Assembly (NCBI GenBank): GCA_016207165.1
Contig: JACQQD010000008.1
Location: 1 to 64,000 of the forward strand
Source of the DNA: Candidatus Micrarchaeota archaeon
GTDB lineage: Archaea > Micrarchaeota > Micrarchaeia > Norongarragalinales > Norongarragalinaceae
Length of the DNA: 64,000 bases
Direction of reading: 5' to 3'
Part shown: positions 772 to 44,141 of the stretch, piece after piece
How the letters are laid out: every line of letters starts with the position of its first letter
How positions within the stretch are numbered: position 1 is the first letter of the stretch
Notes under the pieces: generated by a model
The model's input: the letters and a program-made list of their open reading frames with translations, nothing else
What the model was told of the DNA's origin: nothing
Databases searched by the model: none
Translations under genes and position numbers: made by a program

Positions 772-844
772 GGGCTCGTGGCGCAGTTGGTAGCGCGCGT
801 GATTTGCAATCACGAGGCCGCGGGTTCGAATCCCGCCGAGTCCA
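772..844 (+). tRNA. tRNA-Ala(TGC) in the 16S-23S spacer
   Basis: Cloverleaf, anticodon TGC 805-807, G3:U70 pair, GGTTCGAATC T-arm; CCA not encoded. Confidence 0.97.
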
Positions 845-845
845 T

Positions 846-983
846 GAACCTTTTCTTTTGGGAAAGAAAAGCTTCACCAAAAGAAAACGGACTTGGTGGA
901 CCTCCGTGGAACGGGGGTCAGGGGTTACCAAGGACTGGGGGGCGGAGCCCCGCGGTCCGGGTTCTGAATCCCGCCGAGTCCAT
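846..983 (+). repeat. tRNA-3'-associated hairpin element 1 plus duplicated tRNA-Ala 3' end
   Basis: GAATCCCGCCGAGTCCAT at 828-845 repeated at 966-983; contains GGGGTCAGGGGTTACCAAGGACTGGGG and GGGGCGGAGCCCC. Confidence 0.9.
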
Positions 984-3187
984 TTTAGTCAAGTACCGAT
1001 GCAAACGGCATTCGGTCATGGGCTAATGTGATTGGAGTTGGTGTCAAAGCCGGTTCCGGTTGTTTGAACCTTCGGGTTTGAATGCGGTTTCCGACGAACC
1101 GTTTCCTTTGGGAAACGAGGTTGGAATTCAAGCGTGGATTGTTTCGCACCTTTTTGGGTGGGAAGCGGATTTCGTGAAGCGGTAGTAGGCAAGAGACAAA
1201 ATATTCTCCGAATGTTTTCACTGGAGGAATTAGCTTTTACGAAACCACCCAGTGGATGGTTCGGCTTGGACAGCGATGAAGGGCGTGGCAAGCTGCGATA
1301 AGCCTCGGCGAGGAGCATGCATCCCGCGAACCGAGGATTCCCGAATTTACCCCGCGAGGGGAGCGTACCCGCTGAACTGAAATATCTTAGTAGGCGGAGG
1401 AAAAGAAATCAACCGAGATGCCGCGAGTAAGGCGACTGAAACCGGCTTTAGCGCAAACCGAATTCCTGCCGTAAGGTAGGTAAAGATGTGGTGTTTGGGC
1501 GCTTTCTTTAACGCGAGACGGCGAGTTGAACTGCGTTGGAATACGCGGCGATACACGGTGATAGCCCGGTAGGCGAAGTCGTTTCGGGTGGAAGGCGTTC
1601 CAGAGTAACGTGTCCTGGTTTGGGCACGCCAATGCGGGAGCATTAACTTCCAACGCTAAATATACTCCAAGACCGATAGCGAACAAAGTACCGAGAGGGA
1701 ACACTGAAAAGCAGCCCGGGAGGGTTGTGAAAAGTGCCTGAAATTGGGTGGTGACAGCGAAGACGCGGCATGAAAGGGCTTCGAGCCCAGTGTTGCGTCA
1801 TCCTTCTTGAAGCAAGAGCCAAGGAGTTTACGATAGTGGCAAGCATTGTGCATAGCGAAAGCGAATCGCGCGCAACGCCGCAAGGCGCCAGGCGCGCCGT
1901 CTTCATGGGCGGGAAGTCACTGTTGTAAGACCCGAAGCCAAAGCGATCTATACGCGAACAGGGTGAAGCCGTCCTTCCGGATGGTCGAGGCCCGCAACCC
2001 GTATTGGTCTAACCATTGGGGTGATTTGCGCATAGGGATGATAGGTCATTCGAGCTTGGCGATAGCGGGTTCCCATCGAAGTGAACCGCAGTTCAGCCTC
2101 ACCCGAGGTTGGTATCGTGTAGAGCCACCGATTTGGTGGAGCGGGGGAGAAATCCCTCACCACCTTGTCAAACTCCGAAGACGATACCGCCGTAGACGGT
2201 GGGAGTTGGGGGCATGAGTTAAGCGCGTGTCCCGAGGGGGGAACGACCCGTACTCACGTTAAGGTCCCAAAGTGTGGTCTAAGTGTAAACTCAAGATGTT
2301 TTGAATCTCAGACAGTGGGGAGGTAGGAACAGAAGCTGCCATCCTTTAAACAACGCGTAACAGCGGACCCATCAAGGTTTAAAGCATCGCAAACTGTCGG
2401 GACTCAAGACCACCACCGAAACGTGGGCGCCGTTTCTGAATAGGAACGGATCGAGTAGATGGGCGTACGGCTTGGGTAGAAGCGGGGGCGTGAGTTCCCG
2501 TGGACCGGGTTGTAACGAAGATCTTGGTGCTAGTAACAGCTATTCCAGGTGAGAGTCCTGGACGTCGGAAGGGCAAGGTTTTCTTGGCAACGTTCGTCGG
2601 CCAAGAGTTAGTCGATCCTAACCCGTAACGTAACCGTGTAGGGGAAAGGGAAAGGCGTTAATATTCGCCTACCTTGCAGGTAGGTGCGGCAACGCAAGGC
2701 GTGCATCTGACGCTTGGGGATAAGTCCAGCCGGTGTATCCGGTTTAAGCCGAATAACGCAAAGAAGTCTTGTTGTAAGGAGCATTTGCGTAAGCGGCGAA
2801 TGGCCCCGCAAGGGGTTGGACTGAATCCCAAAGTCCATGAAAAGGGTGCATGCAGCGATCCTGCAAGATCGTACCAAGAACCAGTACAGGTGCCCCTGGC
2901 AGAAAAAGCCAAGACGTGTCGGGAGAACTAAGGCAAGGGAACTCGGCAAAATAGCCCCGTGCCTTCGGTAGAAGGGGTGCCTACTTTTTTTCCTGGGATT
3001 TATTTCAGGGGGATTAGTAGGTCTCAGTGACAAGGGGACATCGACTGTTTACCAAAAACATAGGTCGCTGCCAAGTGGAAACGCTGTGTACAGCGGCCGA
3101 CGCCTGCTCACTGCCAGTATCTGAAACCGCTTTTCAAGGTGGCGAAGGACTGGTAAAGAGCGGGAGTAACTCTGACTCTCTTAAGGT

Positions 3188-3490
3188 AAACTACGATTGC
3201 CTTATCAAAATTTGGCCATATGCTGGAAAACCTGAGTATCCCACGCTACCACCGGCCACGAGGTGTCTGAACCTTAAAAAAGTTCTGGCACCGAGGGGTC
3301 TGTGGTGACAATGTGTTGGGTGCAGGCAATCAGCAGGAAAGACTGGATCATTTTCCAGAATCCTCAGAGACTGAACGCCAGACACGAAGGAATTCGTGAA
3401 GTTACAGTCCGACCCATGCAGCGATGCATGGAGGCCCACAGAAATGATCGGGCCCCGCATTGTTTTTTTTTTTTGCGAGTAACAAACGTG
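3188..3490 (+). ncRNA. Group I intron (IB-like) at 23S position L1931, no ORF
   Basis: Interrupts CTCTTAAGGT|AGCGTAA; U before 5' splice site, terminal G; IGS GCCTTA (3199-3204); P ATGCTGGAAA 3220, Q AATCAGCAGG 3328, R TCAGAGACTG 3364, S AAGTTACAGTCC 3399. Confidence 0.93.
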
Positions 3491-4213
3491 AGCGTAATAC
3501 CTCGCCGCTTTATTGGCGGCTTGCATGAATGGCGTAACGAGTGTCCTACTGTCCCTGCCTTAGACCTGGTGAACCTACTTCTCGGTGAACATGCCGGGGA
3601 ATTCTAGGGGGAAACGAAGACCCCATGGAGCTTAACCGCAGCTTGTTGTTGCGACGCGGTTGATGGATCAAAGCGTAAGCAGGAGCCGTTATGTCGTTCC
3701 TTCTGGGGAACGGATAGGCGAAAGTGTGACACTGCTATTTGTTGACTGCGTTGCTCACTCTCCTTTGGGGGAGGACAGCGGCAGGTGGGCGGTTTGACTG
3801 GGGCGGTACGCCTTCGAGAAAATAACAAAGGCGCTCAAAGCTTGACTCAATCCGGTCAGAAATCGGATGTAGAGGGTTAAAGACAAACGTCAGGCTGATG
3901 GTGACCATAAAAAAATTGGTCGCCGGCACGAAAGTGGGACTTAACGAACAACAGTGTGCCCGTTAATGGGGCCCTGTTCTGACAGACAAGCTACCCTGGG
4001 GGTAACAGGCTTGTCGCGTGCGAGAGTTCATATCGACCACGCGGTTTGGTACATCGCTATCGGCTCGGCTTATCCTGGCGGTGCAGGAGCCGCCAAGGGT
4101 TGGGTTGTTCATCCATTAAAAAGCCACGTTAGTTGGGTTCAGAACGTTGCGAGACAGTTCGGTGGCATCTCCTAGAATTGTTTTGTCGTCTGAGGGTAAG
4201 GTTCCCTAAGTAC

Positions 4214-4344
4214 ACGGGTTTCTTGGCCAGCTGCTTTTTCCTGAAAGCGGCGTTTTTTTTCCTTGAACAGGATGGCATTTTGACTGTATGGAATGAAGGA
4301 ATGTCAACAGTTCACAGGTTCACGTGCCAAGGGACTCGGCTTAA
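4214..4344 (+). ncRNA. BHB-type rRNA intron 1 in the sarcin-ricin loop (131 nt)
   Basis: Central helix AAGT/GCTT, bulges AC|A and AA|G, 13-bp intron stem 4215-4227/4326-4338. Confidence 0.88.
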
Positions 4345-4349
4345 GAGAG

Positions 4350-42974: not shown

Positions 42975-43037
42975 CAAAGGTTTTTAAACCCCGTTCCGTT
43001 AGGCTTTCAATTGAATCTCACAAGGGGGTTTTTCAGG

Positions 43038-43367
43038 ATGAAGCGGGGTCAAGGAACCTTTGAGTACGTGTTGCTTTTGGGCGGCGTTTTGTTGATCGTG
43101 GTTTTGGCTATCGTTGTTTTGCAGCAGACGGCGCAACAGGGCTTCCAGGGCGCGGGCCAGCAACAGTGTACGGCGCGCTTGTTGACGGACATTTCCTGTC
43201 GCAACGCGCAAGGCAACTTTAACAGTTGTGGCGTCGTGACGGCCTCCACGTATCAGGGTTGCCAATTCCAGGCAGGCACGTTTACCACGGCCGCGCCGAC
43301 GGGTTGCACCAACACCATTGACGCCGCCACGCAGCGGTACTGCGGCCGCGCGCCGATTGGTCCGTAA
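43038..43367 (+). CDS. pilin (candidate major pilin A)
   Basis: RG|QGTFEY; six-Cys head; TTTTTAAA box upstream. Confidence 0.88.
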   Translation: MKRGQGTFEYVLLLGGVLLIVVLAIVVLQQTAQQGFQGAGQQQCTARLLTDISCRNAQGNFNSCGVVTASTYQGCQFQAGTFTTAAPTGCTNTIDAATQRYCGRAPIGP

Positions 43368-43435
43368 AACGGTTTTTTTTCCCCGTTTTCCTTTTTTTCT
43401 TTTCGTATTCCTTTTTTTTCGTTCCTCTTTTTTCC
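43368..43435 (+). terminator. oligo-T tract terminator region
   Basis: Several T6-T9 runs after the pilin stop. Confidence 0.6.
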
Positions 43436-43470
43436 TAAAGGCTTAAATTTTGTGGTTGTTTGGCTGGTTC

Positions 43471-43806
43471 ATGCGTTTGCGGCGGGGTCAAGGAACCTTT
43501 GAGTACGTGTTGCTTTTGGGCGGCGTTTTGTTGATCGTGGTTTTGGCTATCGTTGTTTTGCAGCAGACGGCTCAAGAAAGTTTTCGGGACGCCGGCTCCA
43601 AGCAGTGCGCGGCGCGCTTGCTCACGGATTTAGAGTGCCACGATGCCGACGGTTCTTGGAATGCGTGCGAGGACGTGGATGCATCGCGGTATGCGGGGTG
43701 CGTGTTTGGGTCGGAGACGTTTACCGCCGTGAGTCCGAGGGCGGGTTGCGAGGCGTTGGATGACCCCTTGACGGAGCGGTACTGCGGCAAGCCCCCGGTG
43801 TCGTAA
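43471..43806 (+). CDS. pilin (paralog B)
   Basis: RG|QGTFEY; 90 bp identical to pilin A. Confidence 0.88.
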   Translation: MRLRRGQGTFEYVLLLGGVLLIVVLAIVVLQQTAQESFRDAGSKQCAARLLTDLECHDADGSWNACEDVDASRYAGCVFGSETFTAVSPRAGCEALDDPLTERYCGKPPVS

Positions 43807-43852
43807 GGGCTTTTGGTAAATGCTTTTTAACGAGGGTCACGTCGTGTCTTTC

Positions 43853-44029
43853 ATGCGGAATAAAGTTCGGGCCCAAGCCGCCATTGAATACATTTTACTG
43901 GTTTCGTTTGGCTTGTTCGTCGTCATCGTCGGCTTCACGTTGGCTTTTTACGTGAAGAGCTTCACGGATTCCGCGTTGGCCTTGGTCGCGGAGAACCGGG
44001 ATGCCATGCTGGGCTTTTTGTTGCGTTGA
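43853..44029 (+). CDS. short pilin-like protein
   Basis: RA|QAAIEY class III signal. Confidence 0.85.
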   Translation: MRNKVRAQAAIEYILLVSFGLFVVIVGFTLAFYVKSFTDSALALVAENRDAMLGFLLR

Positions 44030-44141
44030 TTTGATTCGCGTTAGCCGGGGGTTCGGGGGAACCTGGGACTATAGGGGGCGGAGCCCCCTGTGGTCCGGGC
44101 GTGAGAACCGGGATGCCATGCTGGGCTTTTTGCTTCGGTAG
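44030..44141 (+). repeat. hairpin element 5 plus duplicated pilin 3' end
   Basis: 30-bp repeat 43991-44020 / 44103-44132; shares TTCGCG, TAGCCGGGGGT, GGGGAACCTGGG, GGGGGCGGAGCCCCC and GGTCCGGG with the tRNA-linked elements. Confidence 0.88.

Follow-up and report, generated by a model that had tools for sequence, protein, structure and literature searches.

What is the short insert that follows tRNA genes of this archaeon, and why does a second copy of the gene's own 3' end lie beyond it? The window, that is, the whole stretch of 64,000 nucleotides analyzed here, belongs to a 1.27-Mb Candidatus Micrarchaeota genome from groundwater that is 90% complete. The original prediction described such inserts after four tRNA genes and a pilin gene, and offered three explanations: a mini-element mobilised in trans, scars of one element family, or spare att landing pads.

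Duplicated gene ends in the window

A direct-repeat search of the window found all five predicted duplications, exact at the coordinates given in Table 1. Exact repeats of at least 18 bp at a spacing of 40-600 bp number six in the window and zero in 50 dinucleotide shuffles of it, our chance control; the sixth is a paralogue repeat (43043/43482). ARAGORN reported tRNA-Ala (772-844) and tRNA-Pro (6217-6289), and the Rfam tRNA model matched at 772-844, at an intron-bearing tRNA (8540-8644) and on the minus strand at 23614-23732. These matches give four tRNA genes in the window, each with an insert, as had been predicted. At the fifth target the duplication extends beyond the exact 30 nt: it measures 39 nt in full and reaches the stop codon, and the last 9 nt (44021-44029) differ synonymously from the second copy. 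The pilin identity gained no support: the 58-aa ORF has no Pfam match and the label reflects only the look of its N-terminus. Complete inserts together with both of their repeats are also present on independent Logan contigs, assembled from other samples of the same study: 7058-9039 is contained in X3 record 17 and 22065-24000 in X2 record 16.

Table 1. Targets, inserts and displaced gene ends in the window
Feature	Position	Strand	Details
tRNA-Ala, intact	772..845	+	last 18 nt are copy 1 of the 18-bp repeat 828-845 / 966-983
Insert 1	846..965	+	120 bp, between tRNA-Ala and the displaced copy of its 3' end
Insert 1, X-type palindrome module	846-905	+	TTCTTTT..AAAGAA
Insert 1, element core a7	909-961	+	G-box plus hairpin
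tRNA-Ala 3' end, displaced copy	966..983	+	
tRNA-Pro, intact	6217..6292	+	copy 1 of the 21-bp repeat 6272-6292 / 6406-6426
Insert 2	6293..6405	+	113 bp; long element variant with additional inner hairpin; left motif TTCGCG
Insert 2, hairpin and right end	6368-6402	+	
tRNA-Pro 3' end, displaced copy	6406..6426	+	
tRNA-Arg with intron, intact	8540..8646	+	copy 1 of the 19-bp repeat 8628-8646 / 8783-8801
Insert 3	8647..8782	+	136 bp; ~60 nt extra sequence, then left motif TTGATTCGCG, then element core
Insert 3, element core b5	8725-8776	+	
tRNA-Arg 3' end, displaced copy	8783..8801	+	
tRNA-Ile 3' end, displaced copy	23517..23534	-	18-bp repeat 23517-23534 / 23613-23630
Insert 4	23535..23612	-	78 bp; element core a6 at 23540-23593
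tRNA-Ile with intron, intact	23613..23732	-	repeat copy 23613-23630
58-aa ORF (predicted pilin)	43853..44029	+	last 39 nt (43991-44029) are copy 1; exact 30-bp repeat 43991-44020 / 44103-44132, 82 bp between exact blocks
Insert 5	44030..44102	+	left motif TTTGATTCGCG; element core a4 at 44044-44099
58-aa ORF 3' end, displaced copy	44103..44141	+	with own stop codon

A family of one-strand hairpins

The inserts contain copies of one hairpin element. Its core of 50-70 nt consists of a G-rich box and then a long, imperfect GC hairpin whose folding is confined to one strand, the sense strand being the more stably folded in 49 of 53 copies. The hairpin stems hold 89 G.T pairs vs a single A.C mismatch, a purine-purine mismatch (G.G or A.G) is conserved, and compensatory changes occur both between subfamilies and between orthologous copies. 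Selection on the hairpin would act on a single strand, in the form of RNA or single-stranded DNA. The modular layout that had been proposed is visible in an alignment of 25 copies, and the two strings of 21 and 16 nt that elements 1 and 4 have in common match exactly. Between its two ends the element has a single inverted match, of 5 bp (GGTCG/CGACC) and in subfamily b, some copies are arranged as inverted pairs, and no R-box-like conserved triplet was seen at the hairpin foot.

Scanning the genome and its relatives, as the original prediction had proposed, revealed 31 copies in this genome (29 model matches at an E-value up to 1 and two long variants found by reading). At an E-value up to 0.01, the model found 27 and 17 copies in two congeners (G001 and G002) and 16 in a genome of a different genus (G009); together with the genome studied, these are the four element-rich genomes. 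The 57 further relatives have 0-2 copies each. The elements are non-coding and 50-170 bases long, within inserts of 60-173 bp overall, and no coding capacity was found inside or beside the copies examined. Curated Rfam models gave nothing at these positions at gathering score, and at an E-value up to 1 only chance-level matches (E-value about 0.7) at 10 loci. Literature searches found no description of the family.

More than 20 different targets are hit, at 3' and 5' ends alike. Twelve of 30 copies lie within 300 bp of a tRNA gene (11 of the 32 tRNA genes), and protein genes are hit roughly as often as tRNAs. The original prediction had missed how often protein genes are hit, the 5'-end targets and the synonymous differences between the two gene-end copies.

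The cores of b2 and b4, which lie at different loci, are identical. Between b2 and a copy from another genus, core identity reaches 96%, compared with 78% for V-ATPase B and 69% for V-ATPase D; judged from these sequences, the element has probably moved horizontally. Congeners have empty sites at the small ORF and at V-ATPase D. The V-ATPase D 5' end also bears an element in G009 with a different breakpoint, which indicates independent hits on one target.

Gene-end copies with a coding history

Of the 31 copies, 23 sit between an intact gene end and a displaced direct copy of it, 14-111 nt long. The other eight have no flanking duplication, which corrects the original prediction. The arrangement follows one polarity rule for 3' and 5' ends, tRNAs and coding sequences: the left end of the element faces the terminus of the intact gene, whereas the displaced copy adjoins the hairpin foot with its gene-internal side. 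Across targets, no common motif was found at the repeat starts.

At 27 coding loci, codon differences between the two copies comprise 77 synonymous and 26 non-synonymous changes. The synonymous fraction is 0.75, vs a mean of 0.18 and a maximum of 0.31 under random placement (2000 trials). The changes include two-step serine switches (AGC vs TCT or TCA). This excess implies that both copies derive from working genes, and it rules out simple target-site duplication. At the small ORF, it is the downstream copy whose tail is similar to a congener's empty-site allele, so that, judged by eye, the upstream tail and the element are the inserted DNA. The flank copies of L135 are identical at 27 of 33 nt, in blocks that by eye do not exceed about 8 nt, and those of b4 at 60 of 78 although its core is identical to that of b2. 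Such low identity indicates that the divergence of the flanks is older than their joining.

Possible modes of insertion

We tentatively favor, at somewhat short of an even chance, the reading that the element is a non-coding, non-autonomous mini-element carrying a surrogate gene end and inserting by Campbell-type recombination. The mobile unit would consist of the core joined to a short gene-terminus copy from its previous host, perhaps as a circular or ends-in intermediate. A resident gene with a homologous terminus would recombine with this unit in Campbell (ends-in) topology, the crossover probably lying near the hairpin foot. That gene would then remain intact, its end or start now supplied by the surrogate terminus from the element; the element would lie just outside the gene, and the displaced native terminus beyond the hairpin end. 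Conserved genes, tRNAs above all, would be favored because matching sequence is available in many hosts, which would also allow the mobile unit to pass between species and genera. A structure-specific tyrosine recombinase supplied in trans might catalyze the reaction, or else the recombination machinery of the host itself.

Several observations count against this reading. No recombinase is tied to the element. The genome has three tyrosine integrase genes (PF00589), all away from the copies; no element occurs within 1.5 kb of an integrase at the 14 integrase loci searched. A Zn-ribbon tyrosine integrase family occurs in 29 of 61 relatives, element-less genomes included. No excised circles or empty alleles were found among the joints listed from four runs, a weak test because it used contigs only and not all joints were listed. 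Known recombinases have difficulty with a circle as small as 100-200 bp. Five of the eight duplication-less copies abut a gene terminus with the hairpin end inverted, which the model does not predict. At C6:20897 the intact tRNA gene matches its own 3' end and not the displaced copy, which would need a crossover at the far end. The model also gives no account of how a new gene end joins the hairpin foot, and allelic recombination with relatives after insertion could likewise yield synonymous differences.

Among the closest known systems are integrase-borne integrative elements with a surrogate target-gene end, such as tRNA-targeting islands and viruses, and phage 21 and e14 in E. coli icd. These likewise leave an intact gene and a displaced direct partial copy, carry a copy that differs synonymously, and prefer tRNA genes with a crossover in the T-loop region, with empty sites in relatives. 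Unlike them, our element measures 50-170 bp, has no gene and no linked integrase inside or beside it, reaches about 30 copies per genome and uses more than 20 targets, 5' ends included, rather than one specific target sequence. CIMEs, att-flanked islands without their own recombinase, also depend on a recombinase supplied in trans, but they are kilobases long and come from one ICE at one target. Integron attC sites may share with it a recombination-type one-strand hairpin with structure conserved over sequence and conserved unpaired positions, in a unit of hairpin plus cargo. Here, in contrast, there is no attI platform or cassette array, and a gene fragment with homology to the target serves as the 'cargo'; we know of no IntI-type integrase in archaea.

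MITEs, IS200/IS605 PATEs and REP/REPIN sequences are similarly small, non-coding, multi-copy and hairpin-forming, with subfamilies and some inverted pairs. However, our element lacks the transposon-type terminal inverted repeats and the short fixed target duplication of MITEs, its flanks are gene-terminus copies with a coding history, and the genome has no matching transposase. The left motif (TTGAT|TCGCG) is reminiscent of the ISDra2 target, but the duplications separate the element from IS200/IS605 PATE/omega-RNA elements, and this genome has no match to HUH/Y1 transposase (PF01797) or TnpB (PF07282). SINE-like target-primed retro-elements differ in that RVT_1 has no match in this 90% complete genome and that the flank copies have separate coding histories, and IS110/bridge-RNA elements in that the DEDD transposase (PF01548) is without a match there. 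Casposons target the 3' ends of tRNA-Pro or EF-2 genes. They insert with a target duplication (PMC5137440), but their duplication is fixed (~14-15 bp), and they are large and encode Cas1, which has no match in this genome.

A somewhat unlikely alternative to the surrogate-end reading is insertion in place, duplicating a long, variable target stretch through widely staggered nicks or hairpin-provoked replication template-switching. The two copies would start out identical, insertions would persist only where the duplication extends to the end of the gene, and the synonymous differences would follow later, when homologous recombination swaps the flanks for DNA from related strains or species. 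Identical copies do occur (d4 43/43, b8 38/38, a2 19/19 and the four window tRNAs). The linkers of 0-6 nt at the hairpin foot, with 1-2 extra bases where similarity runs further (T-loop cases), resemble template-switch junctions, and at a9 the native flank and the left motif share the microhomology TTTGATT. Some duplication-less copies lie in intergenic DNA, and the stop codon that the left end often gives (TAG or TGA before the G-box in d4, b8 and b4) would make terminal insertions tolerable. Yet b2, which is absent from the congeners examined and has the core of b4, has flank copies that differ at 8 of 59 nt, with four codon changes, all synonymous. The differing part of the intact copy adjoins the left end of the element, where one-sided homologous recombination cannot easily replace it, and this 90% complete genome yielded no known enzyme for 14-111-bp duplications, RVT_1 and Cas1 both being without a match. 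By analogy with omega RNA, crRNA or bridge RNA, the element might instead be a structured RNA gene, its hairpin a scaffold and the displaced copy a 3' 'guide' directing a recombinase or nuclease to the gene end. The strand-specific structure, G.U-type pairs and covariation would suit this, as would the position of the hairpin foot 0-6 nt from the copied target, the identity block that adjoins the hairpin and, in 3' cases, the end of the copy at the gene's own T-rich terminator. We nevertheless consider it quite improbable: TnpB, IS110 and Cas1 are without a match in this genome, TnpB occurs in only one of the four element-rich genomes with a fragment in a second, Y1 TnpA occurs in none, and no element lies beside TnpB or TnpA genes in relatives. 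The displaced copies, up to 111 nt long, keep reading frames rather than a fixed guide length, and some, such as L135, have no long identity to the target.

It is very improbable that ordinary integrated viruses or plasmids of kilobase scale, each equipped with an integrase, once occupied these genes and left the inserts behind as deletion scars. Archaeal integrations of 9-23 kb are well known to leave partial tRNA copies (PMC9897764), and an 11.7-kb island with a tyrosine integrase occupies the tRNA at C1:152884-153013 (15-bp repeat at C1:164682), with an element pair right beside its far end. The ends of the island itself have no element-like sequence, however, and none of 58 viral-contig pattern hits matched the model. 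A scar origin would require 23 or more separate deletions, each sparing one and the same structured core of 50-70 nt in one polarity, and the cores found at different targets match exactly (b2 and b4) or almost exactly. The originally predicted scars of one family fit poorly, given the conserved strand-specific core, the fixed polarity to the gene and the identical b2 and b4 cores, and nothing supports spare att landing pads. A slimmer chance still goes to a host regulatory or structural module (terminator, RNA stabiliser or processing signal) with duplications as by-products. The element is GC-rich, folds strongly and does sit just beyond gene termini, but its orientation follows the duplication geometry rather than transcription (antisense upstream of genes in 5' cases), it is patchy among relatives with empty sites in congeners, and it is more conserved across genera than housekeeping genes. 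Of the explanations first offered, the mobile mini-element fits best, given the many copies and targets, the empty sites, the near-identical cores and the lack of coding; mobilization in trans stays an inference, because no recombinase is tied to the element.

The surrogate-end reading can be carried further, to a proposal that we regard as unlikely: the element may be the cis-acting module of an undescribed recombination system, in which the hairpin would be read by structure, like attC, and the foot-adjacent sequence would set the target by homology. Such a retargetable mini-element could enter the end of any conserved gene, repair it with a portable surrogate terminus and move between archaeal genera without genes.

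In all, the element resembles miniature mobile DNA of a new kind, one that arrives with a spare gene end of its own. If the surrogate-end reading is right, it would be the smallest known integrative element and the first non-coding one with surrogate gene ends for many targets, 5' ends included. It would also point to a recombination activity guided by structure and local homology, with no fixed site, which is of interest for programmable insertion. Even under insertion in place, a hairpin element that makes 14-111-bp gene-end duplications would be a new prokaryotic insertion mode. For the tiny symbiotic archaea (DPANN), the surrogate-end reading would mean that they swap DNA across genera at conserved genes, and it would account for the stray tRNA and gene fragments in their genomes that mislead annotation.

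Extent and reality of the duplications

The original prediction held that four tRNA genes and a pilin gene (here the small ORF of 58 aa) in the window are each followed by a small insert and then by a copy of their own 3' end. All five duplications proved exact and correctly placed. At spacings of 40-600 bp the window contains six exact direct repeats 18 bp or longer, versus none in 50 dinucleotide shuffles. Inserts 3 and 4 (after tRNA-Arg and tRNA-Ile) are spanned together with both their repeats by independent Logan contigs from two other samples, which rules out an assembly artefact of this genome (G000) as the source of the arrangement. 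The runs carrying window DNA are groundwater metagenomes, and no RNA run is among those listed as carrying the stretch. Among the joints listed for contigs (from which rare variants drop out) of four DNA runs from one study, none skips inserts 2-4 and none is a circle junction, a result of little weight either way.

Besides the 3' part of the 16S rRNA gene and tRNA-Ala, the window holds a 23S rRNA gene with a group I intron and three further tRNA genes. One of them, tRNA-Pro (window 6217-6289), was called by ARAGORN but is absent from the hits listed for the Rfam tRNA model in the window and in the whole-genome search. In two Logan contig sets from other samples, 73 nt in the intron region of the tRNA-Ile gene (window 23639-23713) are swapped for 29 other letters, probably because these contigs come from a related organism or strain with another intron. 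An exact 90-bp repeat just 5' of the small ORF (window 43043-43132 and 43482-43571, 439 bp apart) suggests tandem paralogues of small membrane proteins.

The archaeal genome comprises 1.27 Mb in 12 contigs (G+C 56%, estimated completeness 90%). The five inserts as BLAST queries, a search for short direct repeats and an nhmmer profile revealed many further copies of the element, and a covariance model (R1) was built after aligning 25 cores, with the structure supplied by hand. R1 matched 29 places in the genome at E-values up to 1; with two long variants recognised by eye, the family counts 31 copies there. At E-values up to 0.01, across 61 genomes of the order, R1 found 24 elements in this genome, 27 and 17 in two congeners and 16 in one genome of another genus, with 1-2 in twelve of the remaining genomes and none in 45. 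A metagenome scan with one exact-type pattern returned only two loci, from unrelated samples, both true elements at CDS 3' ends; this pattern found no larger copy in the contigs. Two degenerate patterns yielded 53 and 5 stretches in viral contigs, none of which (0 of 58) matches R1, and we took them as chance. Rfam has nothing at the element positions.

Orientation, fold and a second repeat family

Of the 31 elements, 23 are flanked on both sides by direct copies of a gene terminus, 14 to 78 nt long in this genome and up to 111 nt in its relatives. The remaining copies lack such a flanking duplication. Five adjoin a gene 3' terminus by their hairpin end, in inverted orientation, and of these, three are paired head to head with a second, rule-following element; three others show no evident duplication. 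A single polarity rule covers all flanked elements: the left end points toward the terminus of the intact gene, while the foot of the hairpin adjoins the displaced copy on its gene-internal side, from where that copy extends outward to the terminus. tRNA genes are strongly over-represented among the targets, with 12 of 30 elements lying within 300 bp of 11 of the 32 tRNA genes. A tandem array of tRNA end, element, tRNA end, element occurs in one congener (L057, G002:C30:19965-20018 and flanks), where 50-54 nt are identical over the unit boundary.

Features of the genome G000 (C, contig; window, positions 1-64,000 of C8)
Feature	Location	Remark
Target, tRNA 3' ends		ten
Target, tRNA 5' end		one
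Target, CDS 3' end (example)	window	small ORF
Target, CDS 3' end (example)	C5:2738	
Target, CDS 3' end (example)	C9:68369	
Target, CDS 3' end (example)	C3:43946	
Target, CDS 5' end	C11:80460	V-ATPase D
Target, CDS 5' end	C1:124280	
Target, CDS 5' end	C6:128358	
X copy	C6:92125-92216	
X copy	C6:92992-93114	
X copy	C6:95385-95497	
X copy	window 846-905	
X copy	window 6186-6212	
X copy	C11:65990-66043	
Island	C1:152884-164696	~11.7 kb, at intron-bearing tRNA; bounded by 15-bp repeat of tRNA 3' end
Island tyrosine integrase	C1:153229-154065	
Island serine recombinase	C1:162934-163584	
Group I intron in 23S rRNA gene	window 3158-3431	Rfam RF00028, 53.4 bits

Three parts make up the core: a G-box (GGGGG[T]CGAGG or GGGGTTCGGGG), the 5' outer-stem arm and, at the apex, a GC hairpin of 5-10 bp. 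The 3' arm stops 0-6 nt short of the flanking copy. Many copies bear a left motif, (T)TTGATTCGCG, 8-14 nt 5' of the G-box, and several others have a stop codon (TGA or TAG) directly 5' of it. The outer stem varies by subfamily yet stays paired (for instance, CTAAGC/GCTTAG versus GCAAGC/GCTTGC), and subfamily b has a second small hairpin with a compensatory change between orthologous copies in G000 and its congener G001. Since the subfamilies do not align in register, RNAalifold on a MAFFT alignment recovered just 4 apical pairs, and stems were judged from single-sequence folds instead. Of 53 copies folded, 49 are more stable as the sense strand than as its complement, with a mean difference of 4.2 kcal/mol; the stems contain 89 G.T pairs versus just one A.C mismatch, and a purine-purine 1x1 mismatch is recurrent (31 G.G, 18 A.G). 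Selection therefore acts on the structure of one strand, either as RNA or as single-stranded DNA.

Another small repeat family, X, has an outer stem TTTCTTTT..AAAGAAAA, which in some copies encloses inner hairpins, and it can bear the same left motif (GATTCGCG) as the elements. X is also flanked by duplicated gene termini, namely 16-17-nt copies of tRNA 5' ends and one CDS 3' end. A regular expression for its short palindrome has only 7 matches in the genome.

Divergence of the two copies and mobility

Codon differences between the two copies at 27 CDS loci, all of them scored, are 77 synonymous versus 26 non-synonymous (synonymous fraction 0.75), whereas in 2000 trials of random placement the fraction averaged 0.18 and never exceeded 0.31. 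An earlier 210-nt frame rule gave 83 versus 25 with 22 of 26 loci scored, leaving out three gapped loci (b3, d5 and L037) and a4 (no frame); L037 may be non-coding. Choosing the frame automatically by longest ORF leaves b4, a8, a3 and L059 ambiguous, and the 27-locus count reads b4 in the other frame than the 210-nt rule did, losing its 15 synonymous changes. For instance, the small ORF ends in LLR-stop in either copy, yet the codons differ, the stop codon included, and the V-ATPase D start reads MAKENVKPTRMELLNT in both with four codons changed. At one gene end, 18 of 78 nt differ with amino acids unchanged (frame by the 210-nt rule), and serine is encoded by AGC in one copy and by TCT or TCA in the other at some positions. 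Non-synonymous changes would accumulate in a decaying duplicate, whereas these differences are mostly synonymous; both copies must therefore have diverged within working genes, as two alleles that were joined afterwards, and are not a fresh duplication.

Empty sites are found for V-ATPase D in two congeners and for the small ORF in one. In the latter, the gene end by eye resembles the downstream copy of G000, so the upstream tail and the element are the inserted DNA. For one filled site with orthologues in G000 and G001, the AGC and TCT versions are, by eye, swapped in position between the two genomes.

The cores of elements b2 and b4 are identical despite different host genes. The b2 core shares 96% identity with a copy in another genus and 93% with one in a congener; the comparison genes V-ATPase B and V-ATPase D are 78-82% and 69-75% identical. 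In the other genus an element also sits at the V-ATPase D 5' end, with a different breakpoint and a 26-nt copy. At the V-ATPase B 3' end of that genus (L141, G009:C20, 2480-2790), two successive elements with long inner hairpins are each followed by another copy of the last V-ATPase B codons, which is tandem accretion at one gene end. These sequence comparisons indicate that the elements move between loci and genera and repeatedly enter the same conserved gene ends.

Candidate enzymes and mode of insertion

The genome has no match to Y1 transposase, TnpB, RVT_1, IS110 transposase or Cas1; it is 90% complete, so their absence is not proven. It encodes three tyrosine recombinases, two of them paralogues, at C3:309-1529 and C5:32405-33694, with a C-terminal zinc ribbon and the third in the tRNA island. 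The zinc-ribbon family occurs in all four element-rich genomes but in 29 of the 61 relatives overall, including element-free ones, and is not specific to the element-rich ones. The serine recombinase of the island was rejected, as the query used found no match in the other three element-rich genomes (G001, G002 and G009). The presence of TnpB and TnpA does not track the elements, and R1 found none adjoining the integrase, TnpB or TnpA genes examined. A head-to-head pair of elements lies just beyond the far end of the island.

The topology is that of Campbell (ends-in) recombination: an intact gene with a foreign tail, the element, then the displaced native end. The incoming unit would be an element plus a homologous gene end. 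We tentatively favor such an insertion with a surrogate gene end, at somewhat short of an even chance. The main rival, which we consider less likely, is insertion in place that creates a long duplication of variable length, through either staggered nicks or template switching provoked by the hairpin; allelic recombination with relatives would come afterwards. This rival accounts for the loci with identical copies and for junction microhomologies, but is harder to reconcile with b2, a young insertion between flanks that already differ, and with the divergence in the tail adjoining the left end of the element. Readings of the element as a guide RNA, a scar or a regulatory sequence are less probable still.

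Campbell-type insertion also matches the known pattern of integrase-borne elements equipped with a surrogate for the end of their target, which have the same topology. Full-text literature searches returned no description of elements like these, and PMC9897764 describes partial tRNA copies from 9-23-kb integrations. In contrast to the integrase-borne elements, those described here are small and gene-free, high in copy number and wide in target range, including 5' ends; these features are new, as is the structured, strand-specific core, which is reminiscent of integron attC sites. We class them as miniature, non-autonomous integrative elements that bring along a surrogate gene end and whose recombination mechanism may be of a new kind.
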